Below are positions 12,885 to 43,965 of a DNA stretch of 64,000 bases, piece by piece. The translations under genes were made by a program, and so were the position numbers. A model generated the notes under the pieces. It was not told the origin of the DNA. It saw only the letters and a list, made by a program, of their open reading frames with translations, and did no database searches. The first letter of the stretch is position 1. The number at the start of each line of letters is the position of its first letter. The DNA comes from a virus, in the IMG/VR virus record IMGVR_UViG_3300045116_000451, positions 31,654 to 95,653 of that record; one strand, written 5' to 3'.

Positions 12885-14281
12885 GGGCGCTCTCCGTCCA
12901 CGTTGATTCCCGCGGTTGGTGTCGAAGACCGACTAGTGAGTCGATCGACTTCACTGCGCATCTTGGCGCCGACGCGGTCGAGCGTGTAGGGGCTCGAATC
13001 GAACGCGTGCACGTAGTCGTCGCGTGACCTGAACGCGTAGACCAGGGCGACCTGAAGATGCGTCACACCGAAAGCCGACCAGACCGTGCCGACAGGCATC
13101 GCATACCAGCTCGGAATTTCGTAGCCCCATTCAGATTCGCCGATGCGAATGTCGCTCGGCGTGGCGTAATCGGAAGGGCCACCAAAGCCAGAGTAAATCA
13201 AGCGCAAGCCCATGACCTTCGCGTCGAACGCGGGCAAGTCGAATCCTTCGAAACGCCCGCTCGACACGTAGCAGTCGCACTCGGCGTACAAGCGTGCCAA
13301 GTCCGCGCGGTCGAAGCGCTGGTTCCAGAAGACGCGAATCTTCGCCAGGGCCTGCTCGCGCGTCCACAGGGAAGCCGAATAGCTAGTCAGGAAAGCTGCG
13401 TCGATGCTTTCGTAGGGGGTCGAGGGGTAGCCGGGGCTGCGCGCGAATGGCATGCATTTGAGGACAAGCTCGACCGGGTCGTCCGGAGAAAACGCCGAAA
13501 GGAAAGCTTCGACAAGCTCGTGCTGCGCTTTGCGCGGTTCCCATTTGCCGACGTGAAGAAAGCGATACGGTCGAGGTGCGCTCGAACGAGGCGTCGTGCG
13601 CATTGGATCCCGAAACGCCATGGGATGCGGGATGATCGCGATCTTGGAGCGGTCGAGGCCGCATGCGACGAGACCTTCTGCGTTGTGCCGGCACGGCACC
13701 CAGACACCGCCGAGCCGTCCGAGAAGCTCTACGGTTTCGGAGCCGAGCGTTTGTGTCTCGAAAGCCGCAAAGAGCACCGTCGAGGCGCGCGCGGCCGAGC
13801 GTTCTTCTCGTGTGCCCTGCGCGAGCCAGGCATTGCGAGCGACGCGTTCGACGTTGGCAATGCTCGGCACGACGTGACGGATGACGAGCGCGGTCTTCCC
13901 GTGCCTCAGATCCGCAACGTGGCCGATCTCGTCTCGGACGCTCTGGGGCAATTCCGAGTAGGTCACGCGCTCGACGAGCCCGTCGTTCGAGTGCGTGTGG
14001 CTCTCGCTTTGCAGAAACACGGGCAGGCCCGTGCGGCGCAGAGCGCAGGCGTTGCGACGAACGGCTACGCATACGCCGTCGGCCTCTGTTTCGTAGGGCC
14101 CTCGATAGATGACGCCGACGGAGTACTGGGCACCGTGCCCAGGCGCGAAGACAGGACCTTCAGCTTCGAGTTCCTGCTCGGCTCGTGTGCGTTCTTCGGC
14201 CGCGTCCCGATCGGCTCGTTCTGCGAGCGCTTGCTGGTAGCGCTCGAGGTCCTCGGCGCAGACGTGGGGGTCGCCAGGCAC
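12881..14281 (-). CDS. Glycosyltransferase family 4 (GT-B)
   Basis: FLHVGKWEPRK, DCYVSSGRFEGFDLPAFDA motif. Confidence 0.9.
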   Translation of the reverse strand: MPGDPHVCAEDLERYQQALAERADRDAAEERTRAEQELEAEGPVFAPGHGAQYSVGVIYRGPYETEADGVCVAVRRNACALRRTGLPVFLQSESHTHSNDGLVERVTYSELPQSVRDEIGHVADLRHGKTALVIRHVVPSIANVERVARNAWLAQGTREERSAARASTVLFAAFETQTLGSETVELLGRLGGVWVPCRHNAEGLVACGLDRSKIAIIPHPMAFRDPMRTTPRSSAPRPYRFLHVGKWEPRKAQHELVEAFLSAFSPDDPVELVLKCMPFARSPGYPSTPYESIDAAFLTSYSASLWTREQALAKIRVFWNQRFDRADLARLYAECDCYVSSGRFEGFDLPAFDAKVMGLRLIYSGFGGPSDYATPSDIRIGESEWGYEIPSWYAMPVGTVWSAFGVTHLQVALVYAFRSRDDYVHAFDSSPYTLDRVGAKMRSEVDRLTSRSSTPTAGINVDGERP

Positions 14282-14284
14282 GGG

Positions 14285-14944
14285 TCACCTCGTGCGGTAC
14301 AGGCGGTTCTTGTGCACCTTGAACGTGCAACCGCAGCCGACGCCCGCGCACCGGAGCGCGTCCGTGTCCATGATTGTGCCCGCGCTGCGGTAGAACTCCC
14401 GACCACCCGGCACCGTCGGGTTTTCGGCCCATCGGACCTCTCCCGCGCCTTTTTCGTCGATGTGCCAAGCCCGGTTTTTGTCGGAGACGCGACATTGCGC
14501 GAAGCCCTGGTTCACGCCGCGAGCGACGCATTCAGGGCAGACGAAAATGAGGATCTTTTCGCCCGTGATGTCGTCGGTCACAAGCTCACAAAGCTCGGTG
14601 ATGGCCCGGCCGTCGCGGTACTCATAATAGAGCGCCACTTTGGGGCTCGCGACCGGATCGGCGAACTGGTGAGCGTACAGAGCCGCTCCACCGTGCTCGA
14701 TCGGGATCGCTCCGAGCTTGTTTTCTGCGTCGTATTCTGCTCGGCGAGCTTTCGCGTCCGCAACTTGCTCGGCGAGCTGCGTGTCGAACCGGCTGCTCGT
14801 CGTGCCCCCTTGGACCCAGGTCGTCAGCTTGTAGGGCCCTTCAGCAGGCGGCTCGGCCGCACTGGGCGTCTCGGGCGACGCGGGCTCGCTCGGAGCGTCA
14901 GTCGGTTGCTCTGGGATGCAGGAGCTTTCTTCGGCCTGGCTCAT
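14285..14944 (-). CDS. hypothetical Zn-binding protein
   Basis: CPEC...CAGVGC pairs. Confidence 0.65.
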   Translation of the reverse strand: MSQAEESSCIPEQPTDAPSEPASPETPSAAEPPAEGPYKLTTWVQGGTTSSRFDTQLAEQVADAKARRAEYDAENKLGAIPIEHGGAALYAHQFADPVASPKVALYYEYRDGRAITELCELVTDDITGEKILIFVCPECVARGVNQGFAQCRVSDKNRAWHIDEKGAGEVRWAENPTVPGGREFYRSAGTIMDTDALRCAGVGCGCTFKVHKNRLYRTR

Positions 14945-14975
14945 GCGGTGAAAATCGCACGAAGCCTCGGAGCGA

Positions 14976-15386
14976 TCAAGCCCTCTTTTGCCACGCGAGG
15001 TACGAGAAGACGGCGGCCGCGATGGCGCCGACCGCGGTCACGCCGCCCATGATCTTGATGGGCAGCATGGACTTGTCGATGTTGGCCTGCACGGTCGGCC
15101 AACTCTGGTTGACCACGTACTGGATGAGCCCCTGCGCGCCCCCCTGAAGCAGTCCCTGCAGGTCAGAGACCGCGTCTCCCATCCCGCAGCCGCGAAGGCC
15201 GGGGGGCACATGCGAGCGCAGCTGGGACATGTAGGTGTGCGCTCCGAGGCCGTCCAGGAAGCGGGGGCCGGCGGCCGCGGGCGAGTACATGGCCTGCGGG
15301 ATCGCCGGGTTGTGCGTGCCTGCCTGGAAAGCTTCGAACGCAAGGCCCGGCGTGGGCTGGACCGGCTGCTGCGGGAAGTAGCTCAT
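14976..15386 (-). CDS. putative virion membrane protein
   Basis: C-terminal TM helix then QKRA; LDGLG motif. Confidence 0.7.
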   Translation of the reverse strand: MSYFPQQPVQPTPGLAFEAFQAGTHNPAIPQAMYSPAAAGPRFLDGLGAHTYMSQLRSHVPPGLRGCGMGDAVSDLQGLLQGGAQGLIQYVVNQSWPTVQANIDKSMLPIKIMGGVTAVGAIAAAVFSYLAWQKRA

Positions 15387-16012
15387 TTCTGCCTGCTCCT
15401 TCTCACCGCAGCATACGCCTCGTCGATCGCCTTGAACAGCTTCGCGTCCAGCTCCGCGCCTTCCTTGTCGCGCCCAGCTCGGTCTGGGTGGTAGCGCGCC
15501 ACGAGCTTCTTGTAGGCGCGTTTCACGTCCTGGTCGTCGGCGTCTGGATCGACCCCGAGCGTTCTGTAGGCCCACGCGAGGTCACCGTTCGACCCGGGCG
15601 AACGAACGGGAGGGCGCCATCGCTTCACGTGCTGCGCGGCCGTACGCATGCACGGAAAGCACACGACCGTGGCGTCCATGGCGACCAGGCAGTGCCCAAC
15701 GCACACGGGCATCCCGCAGAGCAGGCAACAAGCAGCGGCCTGGGCGCCGCACCACTCGTCGGGCTTTCGCTCGAACGCGCACACGTGCGGGCCATCGACC
15801 GGCAGCACCCACTTCGAAGGCGCGAAACGAGCGACGTTCGCGGCCCAGGGCAACAGGACCGTGAGAAGCAGACGCTGCGCGCTTTCGTCCAGGTACGATT
15901 CGATAGTCTGAGCGAGCGAGCCAAGCTGCGCGAGCGTGTGCAAAGATTCAGCGGTTTTGGCGCTCGGACGGCCACCCGCCATCGCTTGCCGGAACATGTC
16001 GAGAAGAGGCAC
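15383..16012 (-). CDS. J-domain (DnaJ-like) protein with Cys-rich Zn finger
   Basis: AYRTLGV...VKRAYKKLVARYHPDR...FKAIDEAY; CLLCGMPVCVGHC upstream. Confidence 0.9.
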   Translation of the reverse strand: MPLLDMFRQAMAGGRPSAKTAESLHTLAQLGSLAQTIESYLDESAQRLLLTVLLPWAANVARFAPSKWVLPVDGPHVCAFERKPDEWCGAQAAACCLLCGMPVCVGHCLVAMDATVVCFPCMRTAAQHVKRWRPPVRSPGSNGDLAWAYRTLGVDPDADDQDVKRAYKKLVARYHPDRAGRDKEGAELDAKLFKAIDEAYAAVRRSRQK

Positions 16013-16030: not shown

Positions 16031-16258
16031 TCAGGGCCTCGGCTGGGCGCGCGAAACCCATTCGCGGGGAAGGTAGCGGGCTAGGTAGATGCCCGCACCG
16101 AGCCCAAGCGCGACCGACCCCGCTGCTACGATCCAGACCGGGATGCGCCGCTGCGAGAACTCGCGCACGTCCTCGGTTCCGAGCCCGGCGAGCAGCCCCG
16201 CGGCCGCGAGAAGCTTGTCGGTCACGTGAGGGTTGGCGAGCAGGATGGACGCGCCCAC
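16031..16258 (-). CDS. small membrane protein
   Basis: C-terminal TM helix. Confidence 0.55.
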   Translation of the reverse strand: MGASILLANPHVTDKLLAAAGLLAGLGTEDVREFSQRRIPVWIVAAGSVALGLGAGIYLARYLPREWVSRAQPRP

Positions 16259-16264
16259 GGCAGC

Positions 16265-17167
16265 TCAGTACCTGCGTGCGCCAGCGCGCAGCGTGAACAC
16301 GTCCCGCGACAGATCGACAGGAGGCTGCCCAAGACCCCGGATGCCCTTGTACGTTGCGCTGCTTGAAGCGCTCGCCGGCCGCGGCATGGGCGGCCGGAAG
16401 GCCGCGCTTGGCTGGGCGCTGTAGCGCGGCGGCGACGGAGCGCGTTGCATGGACGACATCGTGGCCGATGCGGGTGCCGGCCCGAAGGCCCCGGGGCTCG
16501 CGCTCGGCGCGGCGTAACTTGCCGAGGGCAACGTTCCGCCCCAGCGGCTGGCCGTGCTCGAGATCGCTCGCGACGCCGCGCGCCAGGCCGAACCGATGAT
16601 GCCCTGGCTGCCAGCGGGCTGCACGCCCGAGGGCATCGCGGTCTGCGAAACAGGCGCTACGTAGCCGGGGCCTGCCGGCGTGACGCTACCGGGCGCGAAC
16701 GGCCCCAAGCTCGCGCCGGGGGTCGTGCCCGCTGGCTTGCCAGGTCCGATCCCGCCGCCGCCTGGCAAGGGCATGGCGCCCGGCAGCGGGCCGCCGCTCG
16801 GCCATGCCCCGCCTCCGGGCTCGGGCAAGGCGCTCCAGGGCGACCCGGAGGGAAGGTACCCGCCGCCACCACCGCCATCCCCTCCGCCTCCACCTCCGCC
16901 GCCCCCTTGCTCGGCCGCGACTTCTTCGGGGGACTTTTTCGTGAGGAAGTGACAGATCAGGCCGGCGAGCAGCCCCGCGGCAGACCCCACGGCCGCTCCC
17001 TTGCCCCTCGATGGCTTGTAGGAGAGAGCGCCGATGCCTGCGCCACCAGCCAGGCCTGCGCCGAAGCACGCCAGGCTGCGCCAGTGCAAATCGAAGAAGC
17101 TCGGCTGGGCGCCGGTCGCGTCCGTGCCGAAGCCAGCCAAGGCCACGATGCAAGAGGGACAGGTCAT
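16265..17167 (-). CDS. Gly/Pro-rich putative virion membrane protein
   Basis: Two hydrophobic helices, poly-Gly, LAGFG and IRGLG motifs. Confidence 0.7.
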   Translation of the reverse strand: MTCPSCIVALAGFGTDATGAQPSFFDLHWRSLACFGAGLAGGAGIGALSYKPSRGKGAAVGSAAGLLAGLICHFLTKKSPEEVAAEQGGGGGGGGGDGGGGGGYLPSGSPWSALPEPGGGAWPSGGPLPGAMPLPGGGGIGPGKPAGTTPGASLGPFAPGSVTPAGPGYVAPVSQTAMPSGVQPAGSQGIIGSAWRAASRAISSTASRWGGTLPSASYAAPSASPGAFGPAPASATMSSMQRAPSPPRYSAQPSAAFRPPMPRPASASSSATYKGIRGLGQPPVDLSRDVFTLRAGARRY

Positions 17168-17210
17168 GCGCTGATCCTACGAGCGAGGGGCTTTTTGCCC
17201 AAGGCGCGCG

Positions 17211-18182
17211 TCACCATCTTTCGGCGGCGCGCGGCGCGAGCAGCTTGCGGGCCGCGAGATAGCCTAGCGACAACCCGACGACGAGCATGGCGGCCTTCTC
17301 CCAGCCCTTGGCCTTGGCGAGCACTTGTTGCAGGCCGCTGCCACCAGGCGGAACGACGCCGGTCGGAGGTCCGAGCCCGGGAGGCACTACCGGGGGGCCT
17401 ACTTGCGTGGTTGCCGCGACCACAAGCGGCTTGAGCGTCTTGGGGTCGAACGCCGAGCCCGTCGCGATTCCGTAGCCGCCCGTGCCGAGATACGGCGGGT
17501 TCGAAGCCCACGCGTTGTCGGGCAGTCGGTCGTGCACCTTGGCGTACACGTACGAGTAGCCCCATGGCAGCGCCGCGTCTGGGACGCGCCGGTATTCCCA
17601 GTACGCCTGGTTCGAGATCCAAAAAGAGAGCGCGGCCCTCTGCCAGACGTCGGTGTCGATGTCGCCCGATGAAAAGCTTGCTTCGAGCGGCATCAGGCCG
17701 ACGACGAACACCTTGGGCGTTCCGCGGCTGCCGGCGAGCGCGTTCGCGAGGTACTGCTTCCAACGCTGCACTTGCGTGGCGAAGCTTTTCTCGGTCGCGT
17801 TCGGCTGGAACACGAGATCCACGGTCCAGGTGCCTGCCCCTGCCTGCAAGCTTTCGTTCCACGAGTCGCCGAACGGAAGGGTGTAGGTGTGCGGTTCTAG
17901 GTACTTCACCACGTCGCCGTTTGGCACGTGACGAAGCGCAACGCCCTTGACTTGATAGGGTCCGGCAAGCTCGCCCGTGACGGCGAACGTAGCGCCGACC
18001 TTTTTCGCAAGGTCAACGAGCAGGTGCGCGGGAGGGACGTCGAGTTCCCAGTCGTGCAGGACGACGCGAAGAACGTGATCGATGCCCCCCTCGAACGTTG
18101 CGCTCGGGGCCGCCAGCGACCAGCCTGCGAGCAGGAAGTTGTCGTAGCTGCGAAGGGCCTGGTAAAGCTCGGTGTCTGACAT
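17211..18182 (-). CDS. putative virion protein with C-terminal TM anchor
   Basis: 323 aa, AAMLVVGLSLGYLAA then RK. Confidence 0.7.
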   Translation of the reverse strand: MSDTELYQALRSYDNFLLAGWSLAAPSATFEGGIDHVLRVVLHDWELDVPPAHLLVDLAKKVGATFAVTGELAGPYQVKGVALRHVPNGDVVKYLEPHTYTLPFGDSWNESLQAGAGTWTVDLVFQPNATEKSFATQVQRWKQYLANALAGSRGTPKVFVVGLMPLEASFSSGDIDTDVWQRAALSFWISNQAYWEYRRVPDAALPWGYSYVYAKVHDRLPDNAWASNPPYLGTGGYGIATGSAFDPKTLKPLVVAATTQVGPPVVPPGLGPPTGVVPPGGSGLQQVLAKAKGWEKAAMLVVGLSLGYLAARKLLAPRAAERW

Positions 18183-18280: not shown

Positions 18281-19075
18281 CTACCGCAGGCTCTCGCTCA
18301 GGTCACGCTCGATCTGCTTGAGCAGCATGGCCGGGCACTTGTAGCCCATCACCTCGCCCTGGATGAAGGCGACCGGGCTTTCGATCTGCCGGTACACGAC
18401 GCCCGTCATGGTGAAGATGACGTCCTCGTAGACGTACTCGGTGAAGGGAGCATCGGGGGCGCCGTAGCGGCGCGGCGTCTGAGGCATGACGCTGGAGCCG
18501 TATCCCGCGGCGGAAGCGTACTGCGTGGCCGCCGCGATGATGAAGTCGGCCGCGGTCTGCTGGCGGATGGGCACGATGGGCCCGCGGCTCATCTGGCTGG
18601 ACTGCGTGCGCAGCGTGCTTGGGATCGGGTCGAGCCGGTAGCGCAGGTTGCCCGGGTTCTGGTTGTTCATGCGCACGACGTAGCCGAGCGAGCCCGACAA
18701 GCGGCCCTCATCGAGCGGCACGAAGTCGAACGCGTTCACGCCGCTGAAGCGATACGGCTGGATGCGGTAGTCCAGGAGAATGATGGCCTGCCCGACGTCG
18801 GCCTTTACGGCTCCGATCTCGAAGCTCGTCGGGCTGGTCGGCGATCGTGCCGGGTCGAACCACGCCTCGTTCGGCTCGACCCGGAAAAGCTCGTGGTAGG
18901 GCTTGGTCTCGGGGTTGCGGGCGATCTTCGCCATGATGGCGCCCGCTTCCGAGACCACGGACGAGGCGCCGGTGCCTGGTTGGCCGGACCAAGGCGGCGG
19001 AATGGGAGCGCTCGGATCGAGCGGGCACCCCTCTCGGTTCAGGGGCCCCGTGTGCAACGGAAAAGGCTTCGGCAC
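18281..19075 (-). CDS. putative minor capsid (jelly-roll-like) protein
   Basis: Beta-rich pattern, adjacent to the capsid candidates; fold is inference. Confidence 0.45.
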   Translation of the reverse strand: MPKPFPLHTGPLNREGCPLDPSAPIPPPWSGQPGTGASSVVSEAGAIMAKIARNPETKPYHELFRVEPNEAWFDPARSPTSPTSFEIGAVKADVGQAIILLDYRIQPYRFSGVNAFDFVPLDEGRLSGSLGYVVRMNNQNPGNLRYRLDPIPSTLRTQSSQMSRGPIVPIRQQTAADFIIAAATQYASAAGYGSSVMPQTPRRYGAPDAPFTEYVYEDVIFTMTGVVYRQIESPVAFIQGEVMGYKCPAMLLKQIERDLSESLR

Positions 19076-19094
19076 GGCGACCTCCTAGAGCCCG

Positions 19095-20078
19095 TCAAAT
19101 CATGCGCACGCCAGCCGGCTGCAGGATTCGGAACCCGAGCAGACCGACGATGACCACGCCGTCGGGCTTGCGAATGATGGTGTCCTGCACGCCCTCGTCG
19201 CATTCCCATTGCGAGTAGCCGATGCCTTCGTGGCCGTCGTACTGGCCCGCGAGGTAGGGCATCGAGCCCACGATCGCCTGGATGTTGCCGGCGATGGGAT
19301 TGTTGATGTGCATGGGCTCCAGTTCCAACTCGATCGTTTCGCCCTTCTCCCAGTAGTCGAGAACTGGCAGCGTGAGCATCTGCTCCATGCCGGGGGCCCA
19401 CAGGCTCGACGGGACTTTGTCGGACTGGCGAGGGTAAACCGCGCCCTTGAGCGAGATCCAGCCGTCCCACTCCATCGTACGGAACGGAGATTGGTTGGTC
19501 GCGCGGTGCGGCACGGCGCCAAGGGGCGTCGTTTGCGGCGGCACGCACCCCTCGTTGCCCAGGTTCCAGCTCCAATCCCATCCGTTCATGGCGTCCATGA
19601 AGTCGAGCACGCTCGAGATGGGACGCTGCCTGCCCCAGGAGCGCCCTTCGAAACGCTGTACGTTCTGGCCGTCGGTCACTTCGAACCCGTACAGGGACAC
19701 GAACGTCGCGTAGCGCGCAACGGCGACGAAAGGCCCGTCCTGCGAGATCGTGAAGCTGCCCGAGACGCCCGTTTGAAGGTTCGCGGGCACGGCGATCTGA
19801 ATGGGGATGTCGAACGGGATCCTGCGGCCCGGGATGTCCTCGATGGCGAGCATGTCGGGCGTTCCGAGAAGGGTCCCTCCGCCCTTGGAGCCTCGGACCT
19901 TCATGCCTTCGAGCATGCCGCCCATGCGCTGGATGGCGGCGGCGTGCGCGGCGTGCGAGCGGCGAAGCTCGTCGTGAGCGGCGCCGAGCCTGCGGCTCGC
20001 CTCGACCGCTTCTCGGGCGGCGCGATTCGCGCCGTCCGTCATCTGCTGGATACGTGCCCAGATTTGGTTGATGTCCAT
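19095..20078 (-). CDS. putative capsid/penton protein with N-terminal coiled coil
   Basis: N-terminal heptads then beta-rich domain ending VIVGLLGFRI; strong codon bias. Confidence 0.5.
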   Translation of the reverse strand: MDINQIWARIQQMTDGANRAAREAVEASRRLGAAHDELRRSHAAHAAAIQRMGGMLEGMKVRGSKGGGTLLGTPDMLAIEDIPGRRIPFDIPIQIAVPANLQTGVSGSFTISQDGPFVAVARYATFVSLYGFEVTDGQNVQRFEGRSWGRQRPISSVLDFMDAMNGWDWSWNLGNEGCVPPQTTPLGAVPHRATNQSPFRTMEWDGWISLKGAVYPRQSDKVPSSLWAPGMEQMLTLPVLDYWEKGETIELELEPMHINNPIAGNIQAIVGSMPYLAGQYDGHEGIGYSQWECDEGVQDTIIRKPDGVVIVGLLGFRILQPAGVRMI

Positions 20079-20180
20079 CTGTCGCTCCTTGCGCCTTCGA
20101 GCGCGGAGTCACCGGCCCCCGGGATCTCCGAGGGCCGGCGCGATCAGGGATGCGAAGCGGGCCCGGCGGCCCGCCCCGGG

Positions 20181-20948
20181 CTACTGCACGTCGCGGCTCA
20201 GCAGGCCGTCGATCGTCATCGACACGACCTTGGTGATCGCGTCGACGGCGTTCAGGTTGCTGATGGGGTCGCGCATGTTGCGGTTCTGGTTGGTCGCGGT
20301 GCCGAAGACGGTCGCGTTGCCGCCGTCCGGGTACGCGACGCCCTGGACGCTCACCTTGATGAACTGGCGAGGCGTGATCGTGATGGCGCGCGCGATGCGC
20401 AGGATCGCCGCGTGCGTCGAGTCACCGTTCTGCCAGTGGATGAGGTCGGTCGGGCCACCGTTGTCGCCGCTCAGGCCGCCGCCGTACGGGAAGTACATCG
20501 TCGGCATCGACTTGAGCGAGTCCTTCTCGCCGGCTCCGAGCGTCCAGAACAGGCCCTCGGCGCACTGCGAGTGCAGGCGGTAGACGTCGTAGAGGTCGCC
20601 CGGCGCGTTGCCGATGGCGACACCGCCCGGACCGTTCGGCCACACGATGGCGTCGCCCGGCGTGACGTGGCCCCAGTCGCCGTTGACGGCGACAGGGCCC
20701 GCGGGATCCAGCACGCGCTGGATCGGCGCGCGGAACCAGAGCATGACCCGCGCGGCCAGGATGATCATGCTCGAGTCGTTCGGCAGGATCGCGCTGGTCT
20801 TGAGGTTGGTGAAGCCCTCGTCGCGGCCCTGCAGGATGAACAGGTCCGTCTGGGGGTTGAGCCCGCCGGGGCTGATGCCGAACGTCCTGATGAGGGCGTC
20901 TCGGTACGGCTGGTGGACTCGCTCGCGCACATTCAGAATCTTTGCCAT
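20181..20948 (-). CDS. putative major capsid protein (single jelly-roll-like)
   Basis: 255 aa, very high GC3, GGAG RBS, follows core protein; QPYRD...TNL..SAILP...IDGLLSRDVQ pattern; no TM. Confidence 0.6.
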   Translation of the reverse strand: MAKILNVRERVHQPYRDALIRTFGISPGGLNPQTDLFILQGRDEGFTNLKTSAILPNDSSMIILAARVMLWFRAPIQRVLDPAGPVAVNGDWGHVTPGDAIVWPNGPGGVAIGNAPGDLYDVYRLHSQCAEGLFWTLGAGEKDSLKSMPTMYFPYGGGLSGDNGGPTDLIHWQNGDSTHAAILRIARAITITPRQFIKVSVQGVAYPDGGNATVFGTATNQNRNMRDPISNLNAVDAITKVVSMTIDGLLSRDVQ

Positions 20949-21067
20949 GGTGGTTTCTCCGTTGCCCGGGTATTCACCCGGTTGCTTGCCGGCCGGTGCT
21001 GTTGTTCACGCGGCCAAGTTCCGCGAGCCGGCCGGCGTTGTTCCTTTTTTCCTCGTGGTCCCCGGCA

Positions 21068-23731
21068 TCAGCCGAAGACGCCGTTCGAGCCTCCGACGTC
21101 GAAGATCCCCGTGTCCGGCGCGATCTCCTGCCCACCGACGACGCTCATCTGCGTGGTCGGCACGTAGTCGGAGCGCGTTCCGGGCCCGCCGCCCGTCAGC
21201 ATGCCGGGCCCGGCGCCCAGGCCCGCTGCGGCCTCCATCACACCGAATTCGGCGTCCAGGTTCCCGTCCGGGCGCACGCCGTCGTTGATGTAGCCGAACC
21301 CATCCGCTGAGCCCGAGAAGCTCGGCAGCACCTCGTAGTCGCCGTAGCCCTCGACCTGCAGGCCCGAGGCGACGTACTCGCCGAAGTCACTGACGGGCGC
21401 GAGCGAGCCGTCCGAAACGTACTCGCCGGTGCCGGTCACGTACTCGCCGAAGCCGGCGTTTGCCTGGTAGAACTGGCCCATGCCGGCGGCAGCCTGCACG
21501 AAGCGCGGGTCACCGAAGCCGGCGTTCGCCTGGTAGACGGGCTGCCCGAAGCCGCCCATCACGTAGCGCGAGCGCTGGCCCTGGCCCGGGATGCCCGAGA
21601 ACCCGGGGATGGTGTAGCCCACGGCGTTCAGAATGCCCTGGATGACGCCCGTCGCCATGGCGACGAAGCTGCCGACGCTCACGGCCTGTGCGTAGTGGCT
21701 CTTGCTCGGGTCGGTGAGGAACCACTTGCCCGAGGCGTACATGCCGATGCCACCGGCGACGACCTTGGAGGCGGGGCCGACGAACTTCGCGACGCCCGGC
21801 CCGAGGTAGCCGCCGAGGATGCTGAACAGGCCCGAGAGCAGGTTGATGCCGATGAACCCGCCGATGCCGGTGAGGCCGGCCTTGATGGCATCGCCCCAGC
21901 TCGGGTACGCGAGGTTCTCCATGTAGAAGCCCGGGTTCTTGCGGAACTTCTTGCCCATGCGCTTGTACATCTTCGACGCCTTCTTGACGCCGTAGCGCTT
22001 GACCAGGGCCTTCCACGTGCGCTTGCCGAAGCGCTTCTTCGCTTTCTTGCCGTACTTGCGCTTCTTGCTCGTGGACCGGCGCTTCTTGCTCTTGCCGCGC
22101 TTCTTTCCCTTGCTGCGCTTCTTGCCGCCGATCGCCCAGTAGTCGGGCTTGCGGAACGCGCTCTTGGTGCGCGCCTTCTTGAGGTACTTGCGGAAGCGCT
22201 TGGAGCCCATCATGGCCCGCACCCACGCGTCGAAGTCCTCGTACTCGGGGAACTGGCGCTGGGCGTGCCCCTCGGCCATGGCTTCCATCGCGAGGGCGAG
22301 CTGCTGGGGCGTCACGCCCATGTCGCGCGCGGCCTGCACGGCGGCGTACGTGAACTTCGGGGGCTTGGGCATCTTCGGGGGCTTGATGCGCCTGCCGACC
22401 CAGGGAGGAAGGAAGCCGGGCCCCCAGTCGAGGCGCTGAGCCCAGGCATACGGATCGAGGCGCTGGCCGCCGATGCCGGGCCGGAACGGGTAGCCGGTGC
22501 CTGCGCGCGTCTGCATGCGCGTGATGACGAGCAGGCGGCTTCGCGCAAGCGCCTTCTGCGACGCCGTCGCGCCCGGATGTGCGAGCACGGCCTGGAGCAG
22601 GCTTTCGGCGTAGCGGAAGTTGCGAGACCGAAGAGCCGTCAGGGCGCGCGCCAGCATGCCGGCCGGATCGCCGTGCCCGGCTGCAGCGCCGTACTGGTTG
22701 GGAGCGAACGGGCTGTTCTTGATGGTGACGTTGAGCGCGCCCCGTCCGCCCACGGCGTGCACACGACGAGCGCGCAGCGCGCCCTTGCGCGCGTAGCCCT
22801 TGCGCCCACGCTTGGCCTTGCGGCTGCGCTTGGCCTTGCGGCCGTAGCCCTTGCGGCCGCGCTTTCCCTTGCGCGCGTAGCCTTTGCGCCCGAAGCCGCG
22901 CTTGGCGTACGCGCCCTTGCGGCCCTTCTTGCGTCGGCGCTTGCCCTTGCCGCGACGCTTGCCCATGTTCTCCTCGAACTCGAAGCTCGAAGAGCTGGAC
23001 GAGCTGCTGTCGTCGTTCGCTTCGAACTCGTCCGCGTTGCGGCGGAAGGCTCGCACCTTGCCCCTGTACGGACGCAGGGTGAAGCTTTTTGAGATCAAGC
23101 CGGGAAGCCCATGGCGTCCCTTGCCCTTGCGGCCTCGCTTGCCCTTGCCGCGCTTGCGGCCCTTCTTGCGATTCTCTTCCATGACGATCATTGGATCCTC
23201 CGTCCAGGGTGGGCCGGCGCCCGGGCCGGCGGGGTTGTTGAGCGCGGTCTGGACGCCGTACTTCTTGGCGGCGGCGCGGATCCGGCGCTTGATCTTCGAG
23301 CGCACTGCCGGCGTGTAGCTCGGGCAGTGCTTGCCGCAGTAGCTGGCGGCGGCGCGCACGAACGATTGGCTCTGGGCCTTGGTTTTTCCGTGGATCGGGT
23401 ACGCGTAGCATTCCGGCAGGGCGTAGTGCTTTCTTTCTGTGGCACCGCGGCGGCGGTGTTTTGCTGGAGGTGACGAATGGCAGGTGACCCCGCCGACCTT
23501 CTTGGCGTTCGTGAGGAAGCGCCCCTTGTCGTCTCTGGGCTGCGCCCGCGGACGCCGCCGATTCCCCGGGTTCGAGATGCCCATGAGGGTGGTGACGCCG
23601 GCAGGGTTCGGGTTCAGGCGCAAGGGATGGCCCTTGGGTACGCCGTACCCCTTGGCGATCTTGCTGCTCACCTCGAAGACCTCGCCGGTCGCCACGCGCA
23701 TGCCTCTGCCGCATTCGCGGGAAGCCGCCAC
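21068..23731 (-). CDS. Basic (K/R-rich) membrane-anchored core polyprotein
   Basis: Long K/R tracts, QPRDDKGRF, DUF6582-like YALP..YPIH...RIRAAAKKYGV, hydrophobic helices, acidic C-terminal AGFG(D/E/Q) repeats. Confidence 0.75.
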   Translation of the reverse strand: MAASRECGRGMRVATGEVFEVSSKIAKGYGVPKGHPLRLNPNPAGVTTLMGISNPGNRRRPRAQPRDDKGRFLTNAKKVGGVTCHSSPPAKHRRRGATERKHYALPECYAYPIHGKTKAQSQSFVRAAASYCGKHCPSYTPAVRSKIKRRIRAAAKKYGVQTALNNPAGPGAGPPWTEDPMIVMEENRKKGRKRGKGKRGRKGKGRHGLPGLISKSFTLRPYRGKVRAFRRNADEFEANDDSSSSSSSSFEFEENMGKRRGKGKRRRKKGRKGAYAKRGFGRKGYARKGKRGRKGYGRKAKRSRKAKRGRKGYARKGALRARRVHAVGGRGALNVTIKNSPFAPNQYGAAAGHGDPAGMLARALTALRSRNFRYAESLLQAVLAHPGATASQKALARSRLLVITRMQTRAGTGYPFRPGIGGQRLDPYAWAQRLDWGPGFLPPWVGRRIKPPKMPKPPKFTYAAVQAARDMGVTPQQLALAMEAMAEGHAQRQFPEYEDFDAWVRAMMGSKRFRKYLKKARTKSAFRKPDYWAIGGKKRSKGKKRGKSKKRRSTSKKRKYGKKAKKRFGKRTWKALVKRYGVKKASKMYKRMGKKFRKNPGFYMENLAYPSWGDAIKAGLTGIGGFIGINLLSGLFSILGGYLGPGVAKFVGPASKVVAGGIGMYASGKWFLTDPSKSHYAQAVSVGSFVAMATGVIQGILNAVGYTIPGFSGIPGQGQRSRYVMGGFGQPVYQANAGFGDPRFVQAAAGMGQFYQANAGFGEYVTGTGEYVSDGSLAPVSDFGEYVASGLQVEGYGDYEVLPSFSGSADGFGYINDGVRPDGNLDAEFGVMEAAAGLGAGPGMLTGGGPGTRSDYVPTTQMSVVGGQEIAPDTGIFDVGGSNGVFG

Positions 23732-23764
23732 CCTGGCGAAACGGATCTCCGCTACCTGCGTGCC

Positions 23765-23793
23765 GTTCTACCGGCGCGGACACGATCTGTCAA
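23765..23793 (-). promoter_or_regulatory. sigma70-like promoter for the core/capsid operon
   Basis: TTGACA-N17-TAGAAC on the minus strand upstream of 23731. Confidence 0.65.
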
Positions 23794-23804: not shown

Positions 23805-24551
23805 TCAGTCGAACCCGTGCAGCGACTGCAGCAGTACGCCGACGAAAGCGTCCGCCCATTCGACGGCGAACGGTCGGGAGCCAGCAGGGCGGCCGGCAGC
23901 GCCCGCGAGCGACCTCAGCTTGGAAGCCACTTCGACCGAGGGCCAGGCGGTCTCGGGGTCGCTCATGTGCACGGGCACTTCAGCGCGTCCGAGTAGAGCT
24001 TGCAGAGCGAGCGCGAGACGCTTGGTGTAGACCTCGGCTGTGATCGCGGATTGTTCGGGTTGCATCGCCCAGGCTTTGCCGAGCGTCACCGGATCGCCCG
24101 CGACCGTGTGACCGAACCCTGCCCACCAAAAGCCTCGGAGAACACCCGGTTCGGTTTTCGCGTTTGGTTTGGTGCGTTCGAATTCGTAGCCCCGCTTCGA
24201 ATGCGCCACGCGCATGAGATGTTCGCTCGCCGGATGGCGAAACTCGACGAGCGCTGCTCCTTCGACAAGCTTGTCGATTCGATCCCTGAGAACAGCGATT
24301 GTGTCGGCACTAGGCCACTCGCTTTTTGCCTGTTTGGACCAAACGTGCACGTGCTCGTCACCGAGGAGTGCGGTCAAGGCCAACTTCAAGTTGTCAGCCA
24401 TGATGCCGGCAGCTTTACGCGCATGCGTCCGATCAATCGACCAGGCGGTGCCTATTTTGATTTCGTCGCGCCACAGCAATCCAGGATCACTGTAAAAGGT
24501 GTGGCCGAAGTCGGACGACCACAGTATCGTCAACGGGTCGGATTGTTTCAT
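23805..24551 (-). CDS. hypothetical protein with internal duplication
   Basis: FGHT...G.AW...L.LAL.ALLG...VHV/M...WPS occurs twice. Confidence 0.7.
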   Translation of the reverse strand: MKQSDPLTILWSSDFGHTFYSDPGLLWRDEIKIGTAWSIDRTHARKAAGIMADNLKLALTALLGDEHVHVWSKQAKSEWPSADTIAVLRDRIDKLVEGAALVEFRHPASEHLMRVAHSKRGYEFERTKPNAKTEPGVLRGFWWAGFGHTVAGDPVTLGKAWAMQPEQSAITAEVYTKRLALALQALLGRAEVPVHMSDPETAWPSVEVASKLRSLAGAAGRPAGSRPFAVEWADAFVGVLLQSLHGFD

Positions 24552-25150
24552 CCCACGATCCCGTCCTTCTTGATGTCAATCTCCGATCCGGTGACGAGAA
24601 AGTGCACCCCCTCGTCCGAGTACACGAGCAGGAACGTTTCACCGGTGTCGGGCCGCTTGCCCGACGCCCAGGTTGCCTTGGGAAGGCGCATCTCGTAGTA
24701 GCGGCCGTCGGTCGCCAGGACCTGCACGCCCTTGAATTCAGCCAGGTCCGACACGAACTTAGGCATCGGGCCCGTCAGCTCGTAGCTTCGGCCCGAGAAC
24801 TCGACGGGCGCTCCGGCTGCGTGACGCACCGACCGAGCACGCCCGTTTCCTTCTCGGAACACGACGGCCTGAGCCCGATCGTTCACGAGCTGAGTGATGG
24901 CCGCGTTGACGAATAGATTCTGCGGCGCTTCGGCGACGTGCTTGTACAGCTCCCACTTGCCGCCGTTGAGCATCTTGTTCGAGAAGTAGATTTCAGCGTT
25001 GGTTTGTCCGAGGTGCATCCAGAACCTAGGCCACTCGAACGAAAGCTCGTGCGGGTTTCTCGCGGGTTTTCCGTAGAATACCTCGCGCTGGCGTTTCGCC
25101 GATTCGAAGACGTTCTTGGTGCTGACTACGGCGACGCGTTCGCGGCTCAC
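24548..25150 (-). CDS. hypothetical protein
   Basis: 200 aa, coupled start and stop. Confidence 0.7.
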   Translation of the reverse strand: MSRERVAVVSTKNVFESAKRQREVFYGKPARNPHELSFEWPRFWMHLGQTNAEIYFSNKMLNGGKWELYKHVAEAPQNLFVNAAITQLVNDRAQAVVFREGNGRARSVRHAAGAPVEFSGRSYELTGPMPKFVSDLAEFKGVQVLATDGRYYEMRLPKATWASGKRPDTGETFLLVYSDEGVHFLVTGSEIDIKKDGIVG

Positions 25151-25542
25151 GAGACGGACCTTTCTTTCTGGCGCGAGCGCATGATCGCAAAAGCGCCCAA
25201 AGCAGCCACGGCTGCGACCACAGCTCCGACAGCGAGAAAGCGAGCCCGATCGCCGACAGGCGCAGCAAAAGCCCCGATGCCAGACGGTACCCCGGTTTTC
25301 TTCGTCCCCTTCCAGACGCCGACTTCACCGCTCGAGATCGAGCCGACCGGAAGGACCCCGTGGCCGACTTTGCGGGCGTCGGGCGGGAGCGGCCGGCCGG
25401 CCATGCTCGCCGGGACTCCGACCGGAGTTGCGAGCGGCGCGAAGTAGCGAGGCGTCGGCAGGTCGTCGTTGAGCGGAACGCGGTCGCCGGCCTCCCAGTA
25501 GTCGAACCCGCCCTCGTACGGGTTGTGCACCGAGTAGATCAC
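25147..25542 (-). CDS. putative virion membrane protein
   Basis: GTG coupled start; C-terminal TM helix. Confidence 0.65.
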   Translation of the reverse strand: MIYSVHNPYEGGFDYWEAGDRVPLNDDLPTPRYFAPLATPVGVPASMAGRPLPPDARKVGHGVLPVGSISSGEVGVWKGTKKTGVPSGIGAFAAPVGDRARFLAVGAVVAAVAALGAFAIMRSRQKERSVS

Positions 25543-26579
25543 AGCGCGCCCTCGAACTCGGCCTCCTCGTACTTGGGCGTCTCGGCAAGCTCGCGGTGGC
25601 GTTCGCGCAAGCGCTTGAGGCTGCGCGCCTTGTGCTCGCCGTACGCCTCGCCCGCCTTGGACAGGGAGGTGACGATCTGGGGCGCGAACTGGATGACGAG
25701 GTAGATGCCGAGACCGGCGGCCCCGAGCCCGATGATCCAGCGCTGGGTGCTCTTCGAGATGAACTGGTCGATGATGCTGGGCGGATTCTCGGAAAGCTTC
25801 GTGACGGCATCCGCCATGTTGCGGCAAATGATCTCGGCGTCCTTGTGGTTCGTGCTGATGGCGAGCTTGCACGCCTCGAGCATCTGCTCTCGGTTCTTCA
25901 AGCTCGCCTGCACGTACGCGTACCAGCTCACAAGGCCAGCCGCCGCTAGGATGGCGATGATGCCCACGTAGAAAAGCACCGGCCCTCCCAGCCCAACCGC
26001 GCCCAAGCTCGGCCCGGTCGTCATGGCGCCCGGTGTCGCGATCGTGATGCGTGAGCCAGGCCCGGCGCCTACGCTTTTTGCGTGCCCCTCGGCGTTGACG
26101 ACCGGGCCCAGCATGGCCGTGCGCCCAAGATGGATGATCTCGGAAAACTGCCGGATGCGCACCTCAACGCCCGCGTCGAAGTCGGCCTGCGACAGCCGGC
26201 CGATGGCGACTTGTTCGCGGGCGTAGCCCGTCAGGTACGCGCCCAGGTTCGCCGACGCCTGGGCGAATTTTCCGAAGTAGATCGATCGTGCTTGTTCGGA
26301 ATCGTACGTGAACGCGGCTTGCTCGGGAACGTCCTGGCCGGACGAAAGCGACTGGATGAGCGTGCCGGCGTAGCGGTCGATGTGGTTGCCGGTCAGCTCG
26401 GAGGCGTTCTCGTACTGCGAGGTGTTCAGAACCGTGCCGGCCGGGAACACGGCGCGGAGCGACGCCGCCGCCTCGTCGTAGGCATGCCCGAGCCTCTGCT
26501 CGGCGCTCATGAGCGGGTCGGCGTAGTAGAGCGGCTGCTTGACCAGGGCAACCGCGCTCGCTTCTTCGCGCCCCGGCAT
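25539..26579 (-). CDS. putative virion membrane protein (2 TM)
   Basis: Two TM helices, AVGLG motif. Confidence 0.7.
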   Translation of the reverse strand: MPGREEASAVALVKQPLYYADPLMSAEQRLGHAYDEAAASLRAVFPAGTVLNTSQYENASELTGNHIDRYAGTLIQSLSSGQDVPEQAAFTYDSEQARSIYFGKFAQASANLGAYLTGYAREQVAIGRLSQADFDAGVEVRIRQFSEIIHLGRTAMLGPVVNAEGHAKSVGAGPGSRITIATPGAMTTGPSLGAVGLGGPVLFYVGIIAILAAAGLVSWYAYVQASLKNREQMLEACKLAISTNHKDAEIICRNMADAVTKLSENPPSIIDQFISKSTQRWIIGLGAAGLGIYLVIQFAPQIVTSLSKAGEAYGEHKARSLKRLRERHRELAETPKYEEAEFEGAL

Positions 26580-26594
26580 GCTCCAGCCTCCGGC

Positions 26595-28040
26595 TCAGTT
26601 CGAGCAGTTGCGGCGGGCCTTGCGACCGCGGCGGCGCCGAGCACGCTTTCGCTTTCGGTTGGCCGAGTAGAACGCGGGCTCGCCGTAGGCTCCGGCTCCG
26701 AGGTCCTCACCCATGCCAAGCTCGTCCATGCCGGGCTCCAGGCCCGCCAGACCGAACTCGTCGCCCATGGCGGGGCCGCCGAGCATGCCTTCCTCGGCCA
26801 CCTTCTTGCGCTTGTAGGCGATGTAGCCGACCGCGGCCGCGCCCACGCCGAGAACTCCCAGGATCACCCACCAGTACTTGCCGAGGAGCGAGGTGCCCGG
26901 GGGAGTCGGAGTGGGCGGATAGCCGGGCGGCACGGGGCCCGGAGGCGTGGTCTGGCCGAAGCAGAACGGCGGGAAGCCGTACTGGCCCGCGGGGCAGGCG
27001 CCGCCGATGGGCGGGATAGAGGTGTCGCCGGGCGCCGGCGTCCCGAAGCAGAAGGGAGGGACGCCGAACTGGCCCGACGGGCACTGGCCCCCTGGCTGAG
27101 GCGGACCGGAGGGAGGGGGCTGGCCCGGGATGGCGGGCGTGCCGACGCAGCCGATGATGGGCAAGTACGTCTGGCCCTGCTGGCAGCCGTGCGTGTCGGT
27201 CGGGGGCTGGCCGGGCATGCCGACGCAGCCGGCCGGGGTCTTGACCTGGCCGCCGGGGCATTCGCTCGGCTCAGATGGGCCCGAGCCGATGCACTTCGGC
27301 CCGAAGGGGAAGGGGTTCTTGGTCTGGCCCGCGGCGCACTCGCTGGGCGGGTTGACGACGCCGCCTCCACCTCCGCCGCCTGGCCCGGTGGCGCCGATGG
27401 GCATGCAGCCGAGCATGGGCACGTAGGTCTGCCCGGCAGGGCACTGGCCGGCTGGGGGCGGCTGCCCTGGTTGCGGGGGCGGCACCGTCGGCGAGATCGG
27501 CGGGATCGTCGAAATGGGGTCGGGCAGGCACTGGCTGATCATCGGTTCCCAGTGCTGGCCCTGCGGGCACTGCTGCGGCACGGGCCCGCCTCCGCCGGGG
27601 CAACGACCCTCGACTGGAACGCCGTCCGTGCAGTCGGTGCACACGTTGACGTTCGAGACGGTGAAATCGGGCACGATGTCACCCCAGACCACGTTCTCCG
27701 ACTTGCACCTCTGACCCGTGGCTTCGTAGATTTGGGCGGACTTCACGAAGGGATCGCCGCCGTGCTGGTACTTCCAGGCGCTTGCGGTGCAGCCCTTCCA
27801 GTCGCCGTCGACGTGCAGGCTCGGTGCGCCGCGCGCCTTCAGGTACGCCTGGATCTGGCGCACCAAGCTCGTGTTCGCGGTGTTGCACGAGACGAGCGGG
27901 CCTGAGCCACCGGCCCCGCCCCCCCCGCCTCCACCGCCGCCGCCGGGCAGACCACCCGGGATTCCCTCGGGGAACGGCCAAGTACCCACGCCGAGCACGT
28001 TTCGCTCACTGAAGATGCCGCCTCGTCCGCTTCGCTTCAT
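26595..28040 (-). CDS. putative spike/receptor-binding protein: PG-binding-like domain, CPxGQ repeats, TM, basic tail
   Basis: VRQIQAYLKARG...DGDWKGCTASA; about 7 C(P/A/Q)xGQ repeats; YWWVILGVLGVGAAAVGYIAY; ANRKRKR tail. Confidence 0.7.
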   Translation of the reverse strand: MKRSGRGGIFSERNVLGVGTWPFPEGIPGGLPGGGGGGGGGGAGGSGPLVSCNTANTSLVRQIQAYLKARGAPSLHVDGDWKGCTASAWKYQHGGDPFVKSAQIYEATGQRCKSENVVWGDIVPDFTVSNVNVCTDCTDGVPVEGRCPGGGGPVPQQCPQGQHWEPMISQCLPDPISTIPPISPTVPPPQPGQPPPAGQCPAGQTYVPMLGCMPIGATGPGGGGGGGVVNPPSECAAGQTKNPFPFGPKCIGSGPSEPSECPGGQVKTPAGCVGMPGQPPTDTHGCQQGQTYLPIIGCVGTPAIPGQPPPSGPPQPGGQCPSGQFGVPPFCFGTPAPGDTSIPPIGGACPAGQYGFPPFCFGQTTPPGPVPPGYPPTPTPPGTSLLGKYWWVILGVLGVGAAAVGYIAYKRKKVAEEGMLGGPAMGDEFGLAGLEPGMDELGMGEDLGAGAYGEPAFYSANRKRKRARRRRGRKARRNCSN

Positions 28041-28044
28041 GTTC

Positions 28045-28740
28045 TCACCTGGGTCCGTAGGATAGGTGGCGCTTGCGACCGCGTCCAGAGCGCCGCCCGC
28101 CCCGGCTTCGGGGCCGATTTGAAACAGCTTTGGGCGTGCGCGTCGCACGGTAGATGACGTAACCCACGGTCAGCACGAGCACCGTTGCGCCGAGCGCAAA
28201 CGCTCTGACCATGCCCTCAAACAGCTCGAGCTGAGGCCTCTTGTGAGGTTCTTTGGTCAGATCGATGGTCGACGACTCGGGCAGGTCGGAGATGCGCAGC
28301 TTGGGCAGCACCGCGAACCGAGCGGTGCTCGAGAGCGTCGGCGCGGCGGCCTGTTTGGCGGCGAGAGCCCGCGCCATCGCAGCGTACGGCGAGTAGTCGA
28401 TGGGCTTCGGAGGCGTGACGCAGTTTCCCTGCGCGTCCTTCACCTTGCCCGCGCCGCAGACGGCCGTGAACGCGAATCCTGTCGGCTGAGCCGGCGTGCT
28501 CGGGATCTTGGTAAAGAACCCGCCGATGGTAGGAGGCGGTGCCTGGCAACCAACGCCCGGCAAGTAGACCTGGCCCTCGGGGCAGGAGGTCAATTCTTCA
28601 GGGACGAGTGGCTGACAGCCAACCCCGACTACGTAGGCTTGCCCTTCGGGGCATTGAAGCATGTCGGCCGGAATCTCTGGCTGTTTCACCGAGCCTGGCA
28701 TGCCCCAGGCGCCAAATGCGCGCAGACCGAAACGCGTCAT
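28045..28740 (-). CDS. CPEGQ-repeat membrane protein (paralogue of 29048-29896)
   Basis: CPEGQ twice, TM, SNRPRSR tail. Confidence 0.7.
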   Translation of the reverse strand: MTRFGLRAFGAWGMPGSVKQPEIPADMLQCPEGQAYVVGVGCQPLVPEELTSCPEGQVYLPGVGCQAPPPTIGGFFTKIPSTPAQPTGFAFTAVCGAGKVKDAQGNCVTPPKPIDYSPYAAMARALAAKQAAAPTLSSTARFAVLPKLRISDLPESSTIDLTKEPHKRPQLELFEGMVRAFALGATVLVLTVGYVIYRATRTPKAVSNRPRSRGGRRSGRGRKRHLSYGPR

Positions 28741-29523
28741 CGGTCCCTCCCATATCGCCCTCGGGGGCGTTCAACACGCCGCCGGTTCGTCGCAAGTGAG
28801 CCACCGCGTGCTTCCCGCACGAGCTTGACGACGGGTTTCAAGAATTCGCGTTTGCTCGCTGTGACCACGATGTATCCAACGACCGCCATGCCGAGCACCA
28901 TCGTAGCCGATTGAATGAAACCAGAAGTGAGCGGCCCCGCCCACCATCGATCGACGCACCATCCGAACGGGTTGAGCCGCTGCCAGTAAGGACACGCCTG
29001 CCGGCGAATTCCTTCGCGGTAGTCGTCGGGCGAAAGCAGGTCGGCGCCTAGCGATTGCAATTTCGCAGAGCCTCCCCGCAGTTGGGCGTGGCCCCGGGCT
29101 TCCGCGTCATCTTGTAGACGACCACGCCACCGACCAGGAGCGCGACCGCGCCGAGCCCCCAGAGCCACGCGCGCGAGCCAGGAGCCATCCCGGGCAACGG
29201 CATCGCCTGTCGTTCCTTGGGCAGATCGGAAATGCGAAGCTTCGGAAGCACCGCGAACCGAGCCGTGCTCGAGAGCGTCGGCGCAGCGGCCTGCTTGGCG
29301 GCGAGGGCTCGTGCCGCCGCTGCGTACGGCGAGTAGTCGATGGGCTTCGAGGGCGTGACGCAGTTGCCCTGCGCGTCCTTGACCTTGCCCGCGCCGCAGA
29401 CGGATGTGATCGCCCAGCCGACGCTCGGCTCAGCCGGCGTGCTCGGGATCTTCGTGATGAACCCGCCCACCGTGGGCCCCTGGCATCCGACGCCCGGAAG
29501 GTAGACCTGCCCCTCGGGGCAGC
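28280..29523. repeat. About 300-bp direct duplication (28280-28585 and 29220-29523)
   Basis: Both copies encode CPEGQVYLPGVGCQ...VCGAGKVKDAQGNCVTP...LPKLRISDLP with mostly synonymous differences. Confidence 0.9.
28737..29060 (-). CDS. small membrane protein
   Basis: TTG start after GGAGG, LQSLG, TM, TNRRR tail. Confidence 0.55.
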   Translation of the reverse strand: MQSLGADLLSPDDYREGIRRQACPYWQRLNPFGWCVDRWWAGPLTSGFIQSATMVLGMAVVGYIVVTASKREFLKPVVKLVREARGGSLATNRRRVERPRGRYGRDR

Positions 29524-29896: not shown

Positions 29897-29897
29897 G

Positions 29898-30002: not shown

Positions 30003-30012
30003 CGCGTGCCGT

Positions 30013-30291: not shown

Positions 30292-30294
30292 GAC

Positions 30295-31038: not shown

Positions 31039-31049
31039 GTCCGTGCCTT

Positions 31050-32580: not shown

Positions 32581-32581
32581 C

Positions 32582-43940: not shown

Positions 43941-43965
43941 CCAGGTGATCGCGCAGCATCGCGAT

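Follow-up and report, generated by a model that had tools for sequence, protein, structure and literature searches.

The DNA considered here is a stretch of 64,000 nucleotides (the window), which makes up the final 64 kb of a 95,653-bp contig in the IMG/VR virus collection (record IMGVR_UViG_3300045116_000451, positions 31,654 to 95,653). The whole contig (G000) has a G+C content of 67% and a CheckV completeness of 66%, and no terminal repeat was found on its 95,653 bp. Our subject is a four-gene block at window positions 18281-23793, in which an earlier reading of the sequence (the original prediction) had placed a promoter, a basic core protein and three capsid-like genes, and from which it had proposed a large tailless virus. 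Four open reading frames (ORFs) of 887, 255, 327 and 264 amino acids (aa), the last three with the predicted lengths, are indeed present, all on the minus strand, and the promoter-like motif that the prediction had reported ahead of the basic protein gene lies 34 nt before its start codon. In the order of transcription, the locus reads as follows:

23793-23765, minus strand: promoter-like motif TTGACA-N17-TAGAAC, 34 nt upstream of the GTG start of the 887-aa ORF, read directly from the sequence
21068-23731, minus strand: 887-aa ORF with a GTG start
20181-20948, minus strand: 255-aa ORF, predicted single-jelly-roll protein and candidate small-type major capsid protein
19095-20078, minus strand: 327-aa ORF, candidate large-type major capsid protein, with a predicted jelly-roll at residues 76-327
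18281-19075, minus strand: 264-aa ORF, conserved soluble protein, for which a vertex or minor capsid role is a guess

The four ORFs carry a clear coding signal, since the G+C content at third codon positions (GC3, 0.86-0.95) far exceeds that at second codon positions (GC2, 0.46-0.53). The 255-aa gene, with a GC3 of 0.95, ranks top among the genes of at least 150 aa on the contig, and its counterpart in a relative introduced below (G003) ranks third. Ribosome-binding sites (GGAG and AAGGAG) lie upstream of the 255- and 327-aa genes. TTGACA-N16-18-TANNAY, a pattern composed after the site had been seen, has a single occurrence in the 64 kb where 0.02 are expected (2 of 100 shuffled sequences contained it), and a strict sigma-70 scan did not call the motif at 23793-23765. 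It is a plausible promoter, no more.

In IMG/VR, proteins of the 255-aa type are encoded on 22 viral contigs, the longest of 182 kb. Of these 22 loci, 21 share the gene order 255-327-264, and in 17 an 887-type gene lies directly upstream. Identity across the relatives is 45-71% for the 255-type, 33-53% for the 327-type and 25-49% for the 264-type proteins; by this measure, conservation within the block is highest for the 255-type gene. Two of the loci contain two tandem, paralogous 255-type copies (L003, 60-1731; L007, 8650-10774), so that the shell of some members may have three jelly-roll proteins. For three relatives the genome is complete or nearly so (140-179 kb): G002 (179,401 bp; terminal repeat of 33 bp), G003 (143,727 bp; terminal repeat of 123 bp) and G004 (140,124 bp, 100% complete according to CheckV). 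Their sizes bear out the suggestion that this would be a virus much larger than the cultured tailless phages.

AlphaFold2 models of the 255- and 327-aa proteins (predicted local distance difference test scores, pLDDT, of 79 and 77) are beta-sandwiches, and the 327-aa model consists of a 58-residue N-terminal helix followed by the jelly-roll at residues 76-327. When the models were structurally aligned with 48,161 PDB representatives, the capsid protein of SPV1 ranked first for both. Foldseek matched the 327-aa model to SH1 with an E value of 8.9e-4 and to SPV1 and HHIV-2 with a probability of 0.9. In a further structural alignment of this model, SH1 (6.9), HHIV-2 (6.5), P23-77 VP17 (6.5) and HCIV-1 (6.4) were followed by the double-jelly-roll capsid proteins of SGIV, PBCV-1, vaccinia (D13) and PRD1 (5.5-6.4). 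For the 255-aa model, SH1, HHIV-2, SPV1 and P23-77 VP16 head a weak list of Foldseek matches in PDB, and SPV1 VP4 stands at rank 27 of the BFVD list. An HK97 fold would have spoken against a jelly-roll virus; what the two models display instead are jelly-rolls whose neighbors (SPV1, SH1, HHIV-2, HCIV-1 and P23-77) have vertical single-jelly-roll capsids. Going by chain length, the 327-aa protein would be the large-type and the 255-aa protein, which also matches small capsid proteins, the small-type subunit. A complex prediction with the 255-aa protein and residues 60-327 of the 327-aa protein returned a score of 0.00, which counts neither for nor against binding.

At the sequence level the two families are large, unnamed and metagenomic (412 and 173 proteins, respectively). 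Searches of all four proteins of the block against Pfam and PHROG gave sub-threshold chance matches (DUF6582, FkbH_N and DUF2239), a tblastn search with the 327-aa protein gave no match in 50,697 phage records, and profiles of the 255- and 327-aa families compared with all PDB sequences gave chance matches to antibodies and coiled coils. The 264-aa protein belongs to a closed family, its members 130-345 aa long, that counts 196 representatives at 50% identity; 177 of these have E ≤ 1e-10. The long form of this ORF is real, because its N-terminal extension is conserved in the homologues. No match to the protein was found in Pfam, PHROG or the PDB sequences, comparison of the three families with hhalign gave no paralogy signal, indicating that it is no sequence paralogue of the 255- or 327-aa protein, and the ESM Atlas gave no usable lead for the protein or its homologue P0244, the Atlas model of a homologue having a pLDDT of 0.30. 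It is conserved and syntenic, and “capsid-like” is for this protein a candidate label, as yet unverified. The three proteins downstream of the 887-aa gene had been described as soluble and beta-rich: none has a real transmembrane (TM) helix, and the beta-rich character is borne out by the models of the 255- and 327-aa proteins.

The 887-aa protein has an isoelectric point of 10.8 and 19% lysine plus arginine (K+R), with 40-residue windows that reach 21 K/R. It is built in three parts. Protamine-like K/R blocks (~185-320 and 535-600) lie in the N-terminal two thirds, two to three hydrophobic helices follow at ~605-710, and residues 720-887 form an acidic tail rich in glycine and aromatic residues. 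The 887-type proteins of 17 relatives are 25-50% identical to it, contain 19-28% K+R and are acidic and glycine-rich over their last 150 residues, and 16 of the 17 have predicted hydrophobic segments. Pfam returned for the 887-aa protein just the sub-threshold DUF6582 match. Retention of the three-part layout at low identity fits a protein that is anchored in a membrane and binds DNA on one side of it. We propose that it is a membrane-anchored, genome-condensing protein, with DNA binding and topology both deduced from composition and predicted helices. The description of this protein as basic was thus accurate, and “core protein” by itself is not, as it leaves out the hydrophobic segments and the acidic tail.

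Genes for predicted membrane proteins lie on both sides of the block. A crude Kyte-Doolittle scan of the 18 flanking ORFs between 15383 and 34077 predicted a TM helix in 13, in line with the roughly 15 flanking TM proteins previously counted. Two groups stand out:

25147-34077, minus strand: array of membrane proteins upstream of the block (Kyte-Doolittle), most of them single-pass and many anchored at the C terminus, with TM ORFs at 25147, 25539, 26595, 28045, 28737, 29048, 31589, 32582 and 33283
16031-18182, minus strand: downstream membrane proteins (Kyte-Doolittle) of 75 aa, 300 aa (glycine-rich) and 323 aa (with a C-terminal TM helix)

No Pfam family was assigned in the upstream array, and the 323-aa downstream protein has a counterpart only in the closest relative (L003). 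This TM-rich gene block suggests a lipid membrane. Of the single-jelly-roll, membrane-containing virus that had been envisaged, the jelly-rolls now have two predicted structures behind them, and a membrane would be in keeping with the gene block.

The original prediction had recognized no terminase, portal, tail or FtsK/A32-type packaging ATPase gene in the 64 kb, and Pfam and PHROG searches found none of these families in the window. The absence extends to the rest of the contig and to the relatives. Neither of the two refuting checks named with that prediction, of folds and of genes outside the window, told against it. In the 31.6 kb outside the window, where no structural or packaging family was found, there are genes for RecT, YqaJ, an RNase T-like exonuclease, a lytic transglycosylase (SLT), a methyltransferase, a ComM-like ATPase and an AAA+ ATPase; SSB and RusA were also recognized. 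Six-frame hidden Markov model (HMM) searches of five genomes (G000-G004) with about ten Pfam families gave, in G000 and the three complete or near-complete relatives, no match over the cut-off to the terminase, portal and HK97 capsid families (Terminase_6N, TerL_ATPase, Phage_portal and Phage_capsid), to the capsid families of PRD1 P3 (Phage_Capsid_P3_N) and of nucleocytoplasmic large DNA viruses (Capsid_NCLDV), or to the ATPase families Pox_A32, FtsK_SpoIIIE, AAA_10 and HerA/DUF87. The fifth genome (G001) gave two hits only: a HerA-like ORF of 768 aa, which the other genomes lack, and a match to AAA_10 (E 8.6e-5), which was rejected as a packaging enzyme because it is a DnaB-like helicase beside a primase. 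Among the 25 strongest of the 69 PHROG families matched by G003 (96 proteins) there is no terminase, portal or capsid, and these 25 include helicases, transposases, kinases, RNase H and integrase. A G003 match to phrog_196 (“baseplate hub”), which was not traced to a gene, is left out of the tail-gene count. “Tail fiber” PHROG matches in the window were likewise set aside. They come from two of three consecutive pentapeptide-repeat proteins (237, 293 and 256 aa) encoded at 60570-62928 on the minus strand.

These data are consistent with a reading that we consider reasonably probable. The four genes would form the core virion module of a new, uncultivated and widespread lineage of large double-stranded-DNA viruses that infect bacteria, have no tail and probably contain a membrane, and whose capsid is made of two single-jelly-roll proteins. 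In this lineage the 255- and 327-aa proteins would jointly build a tailless icosahedral shell, in the way of the small and large capsid proteins of SH1/P23-77-type viruses and of VP4 in SPV1, and the shell would surround a lipid vesicle carrying the single-pass membrane proteins encoded on either side of the block. The 887-aa protein would sit in this membrane, with its protamine-like part condensing the DNA inside and its acidic, glycine- and aromatic-rich tail directed toward the shell, and the 264-aa protein would be an additional virion component, perhaps at the vertices. Packaging may then occur by co-assembly with a condensed nucleoprotein and without a motor, a step that we put forward tentatively. 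SPV1 provides a precedent for a jelly-roll virus that lacks a packaging ATPase (PMC8812541). The most far-reaching version, a global clade with genomes of 140-180 kb in which a very large tailless, internal-membrane capsid made of two SPV1-like jelly-rolls is loaded without a motor by a membrane-anchored, protamine-like protein, strikes us as rather unlikely when taken whole.

Several points weigh against the virion module. The capsid role, the membrane and the topology of the 887-aa protein are deduced for a lineage that is known here from genes alone, and the viral status of the contigs depends on their classification in IMG/VR. Neither the 255- nor the 327-aa protein has a sequence link to known capsid proteins in Pfam, PHROG or the PDB sequences, and a Foldseek search with the 255-aa model found nothing at E ≤ 0.001 in PDB or BFVD. 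The jelly-roll fold is common, and the vertical orientation of a barrel cannot be read from a monomer model. The GC3 of the 255-type gene ranks just 11th in G002 and 15th in G004. Structure prediction covered the 255- and 327-aa proteins, and another capsid protein or a divergent ATPase could hide among the conserved orphan ORFs (ORFans), which include the 264-aa protein and one of 837-934 aa in G002-G004. Finally, we know of no precedent for motor-less packaging of 140-180 kb.

The most serious alternative is that these are jelly-roll-shelled viruses that package their DNA with a divergent ATPase, or with one of a type outside our searches, in which case assembly around a nucleoprotein core would be wrong. 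We regard this as a serious possibility, although short of probable. Candidates exist: P-loop proteins are encoded just upstream of the window (an AAA+ protein of 525 aa and a ComM-like protein of 495 aa) and in G003 (a MoxR-like protein of 400 aa and another P-loop protein of 965 aa), and a 301-aa P-loop ORF of G004 has a sub-threshold match to the A32 Walker-A region (E 0.006). The six-frame search, moreover, covered some ten Pfam families, and structure prediction two proteins. However, no P-loop protein is common to all four of the genomes whose gene content was compared, none is encoded in the structural block, and the A32, FtsK, HerA and AAA_10 families stayed below the cut-off in three complete genomes.

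Two further explanations deny the jelly-roll proteins the shell itself. One holds that an unrecognized protein, with a very divergent HK97-type or novel fold, makes the shell and that the jelly-rolls serve as spikes, cement, decoration or receptor-binding proteins. Non-shell jelly-rolls do appear among the structural matches (the 7-7-1 tail fibre, the KHP40 cement protein and PRD1 P5), and several conserved core ORFans could encode such a shell protein. Terminase and portal, however, are as a rule much more readily recognized than a capsid protein, and the complete genomes have no match to either; the best neighbors of both models are major capsid proteins of one virus group, and no genes are better conserved than those for the 255- and 327-aa proteins, which adjoin one another and are universal in the lineage. 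We consider this explanation improbable. The other holds that the element is plasmid-like or otherwise mobile and not a virus, and that its jelly-roll and membrane proteins act at the cell surface or in another role outside a virion. Such an element could account for the integrase-domain protein, the TnpB/Cas12-like gene and the CRISPR-like arrays on the contig, for the transposase PHROG families matched in G003, for the binning of related contigs into metagenome-assembled genomes (MAGs) of many phyla and for the want of a hallmark packaging gene. Against it, the complete genomes have no match to type IV secretion/VirB4-type (AAA_10) or FtsK/coupling proteins, the 22 relatives are listed as viral by IMG/VR with CheckV completeness estimates, and the replication and recombination set (RecT, YqaJ, RusA, SSB and SLT) is phage-like. 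A protamine-like membrane protein beside two capsid-like jelly-rolls would be hard to explain in a plasmid, and inconsistent binning is typical of extrachromosomal viral contigs. A non-viral element is thus quite improbable in our judgment, and a virion core module with two single-jelly-roll capsid proteins is the reading that we retain.

The comparison of gene content, which took in four genomes, yielded a core made up of the block genes, a 200-aa ORFan, a J-domain protein, two GT4 glycosyltransferases and a few further ORFans. Outside the block, the core genes are located in the window as follows:

24548-25150, minus strand: 200-aa ORFan upstream of the block, with hits in 16 loci and in each of the four genomes compared, and no assigned family
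15383-16012, minus strand: 209-aa protein combining a hydrophobic segment with a DnaJ (J) domain at the C terminus (Pfam DnaJ, 2.7e-13), present in 16 loci and in four of four genomes
11790-14944, minus strand: two GT4 glycosyltransferases (Pfam) and a 219-aa ORFan, conserved in four of four genomes

The J-domain protein might recruit a host Hsp70 for assembly. G002, G003 (11630-15528, L025) and G004 also encode a pair of ORFans of 837-934 aa and 265-282 aa that have no Pfam family and are absent from the 66%-complete contig; they are candidates for missing virion or packaging functions.

The remainder of the contig holds several other features. Just upstream of the window (contig 23946-30924; L002:7347-14325) lies a cluster of large proteins rich in alanine, glycine and aspartate, with a G+C content at first codon positions (GC1) of 0.74-0.80, in which the ComM/Mg-chelatase-like (495 aa) and AAA+ (525 aa) proteins adjoin two ORFans of 520-540 aa; its distribution in the relatives is patchy. 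Two CRISPR-like arrays (43269-43955 and 49251-50111) consist of 10 and 9 copies of a ~36-nt repeat at ~73-nt spacing. The second abuts a gene at 50123-52048 (minus strand) whose 641-aa product has a Cas12f1-like TNB domain (Pfam, 8.9e-8), and no further cas genes were recognized. A 1603-aa ORF at 5744-10555 (plus strand), in which nothing could be recognized but a tyrosine-recombinase (Phage_integrase) domain spanning residues 533-749, has homologues of 1222-1279 aa in G003 and G004. DUF5131 (phage Gp37/Gp68-type) and radical-SAM proteins are encoded at 54384-55343 and 58377-59858, respectively, both on the minus strand, in the half of the window with a replication- or early-like character. 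No tRNA genes were found.

Lake-water metagenomes of 16 studies contain the stretch or parts of it. Four of the runs have half or more of the sampled words, two of them possibly being the source sample, and no RNA datasets are listed among the sequencing runs that contain it. The host is most likely bacterial, because the Shine-Dalgarno sites and the gene content (RecT, YqaJ, SLT, SSB and RusA) are of bacterial type. MAG bins were rejected as a guide to the host, since those in question (Myxococcales, Pirellulales twice, Gemmatimonadota, Pseudomonadota, Saccharibacteria and Methanomicrobiales) are inconsistent. Contigs encoding 255-type proteins in MAGs of seven unrelated lineages (L050-L057) are most likely mis-binned viral contigs, and their mixed binning is a warning for MAG-based host calls.

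To our knowledge, all prokaryotic viruses with genomes above ~35 kb are tailed and have an HK97 capsid, portal and terminase, and every jelly-roll virus without a tail, bacterial or archaeal, is small. The lineage described here resembles the jumbo tailed phages (Caudoviricetes) in genome size range and in its phage-type recombination and replication genes, but the HK97 capsid, portal and terminase of that class have no match in the complete relatives, and no tail genes were recognized. PRD1, PM2 and FLiP (Bamfordvirae) have double-jelly-roll capsid proteins, whereas the two proteins modelled here are predicted single barrels, and neither the PRD1 P3 nor the NCLDV capsid family was matched. 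Genomes of prokaryotic double-jelly-roll viruses are smaller than 20 kb (PMC8812541), and those of sphaerolipoviruses are ~30 kb (PMC12643093). A full-text literature search turned up no account of single-jelly-roll capsid genes in large prokaryotic viruses, which is no proof of absence.

A close architectural parallel is with the Helvetiavirae, now placed in the realm Singelaviria, which comprise SH1, HHIV-2 and HCIV-1 (Sphaerolipoviridae/Simuloviridae) and P23-77 (Matshushitaviridae). In this group, neighboring genes encode two different vertical single-jelly-roll capsid proteins, and the virion has an internal membrane; here, two adjacent genes encode proteins with jelly-roll models and a putative capsid role. 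By chain length, the large capsid proteins of the group (SH1 6qt9_C, HHIV-2 6h82_A and VP17) are the best matches of the 327-aa model, and the small ones (6qt9_h, 6h82_E and VP16) are also matched by the 255-aa model. The Helvetiavirae, however, have genomes of 16-31 kb, each with a gene for a packaging ATPase of the FtsK/HerA type, whereas the genomes here are five to nine times larger and contain none over the cut-off. There is no sequence homology between their capsid proteins and the 255- or 327-aa protein, and those viruses have no protamine-like membrane protein. We do not file the lineage in the Helvetiavirae because the defining FtsK-type ATPase was not found.

SPV1 (Portogloboviridae) shares with the predicted structures a VP4-like single-jelly-roll capsid protein. 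SPV1 lacks a packaging ATPase and has a basic condensing protein; in the present lineage no ATPase family was matched over the cut-off, and a conserved protamine-like protein may bind DNA. Yet SPV1 has a ~20-kb circular genome, a crenarchaeal host and one major capsid gene, compared with 140-180 kb, bacterial-type genes and two (in some relatives three) jelly-roll genes in the present lineage. Its proteins have no sequence similarity to the 255- and 327-aa proteins and include no matchable counterpart of the basic/TM/acidic 887-aa protein. We do not file the lineage with the SPV1 group either. Families with hundreds of members, together with complete genomes, make the proposal directly testable. 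Should it hold, these would be the first jumbo non-tailed prokaryotic viruses, in which a jelly-roll architecture has been scaled up in prokaryotes as it has in the giant viruses of eukaryotes, and they would pose the problem of how 150 kb is packaged into a membrane vesicle without a known motor. They would also bring a deep branch into the debate over how single- and double-jelly-roll capsids originated, probably as a lineage at or near the rank of realm or kingdom that bridges SPV1 and the Helvetiavirae with their two capsid proteins.

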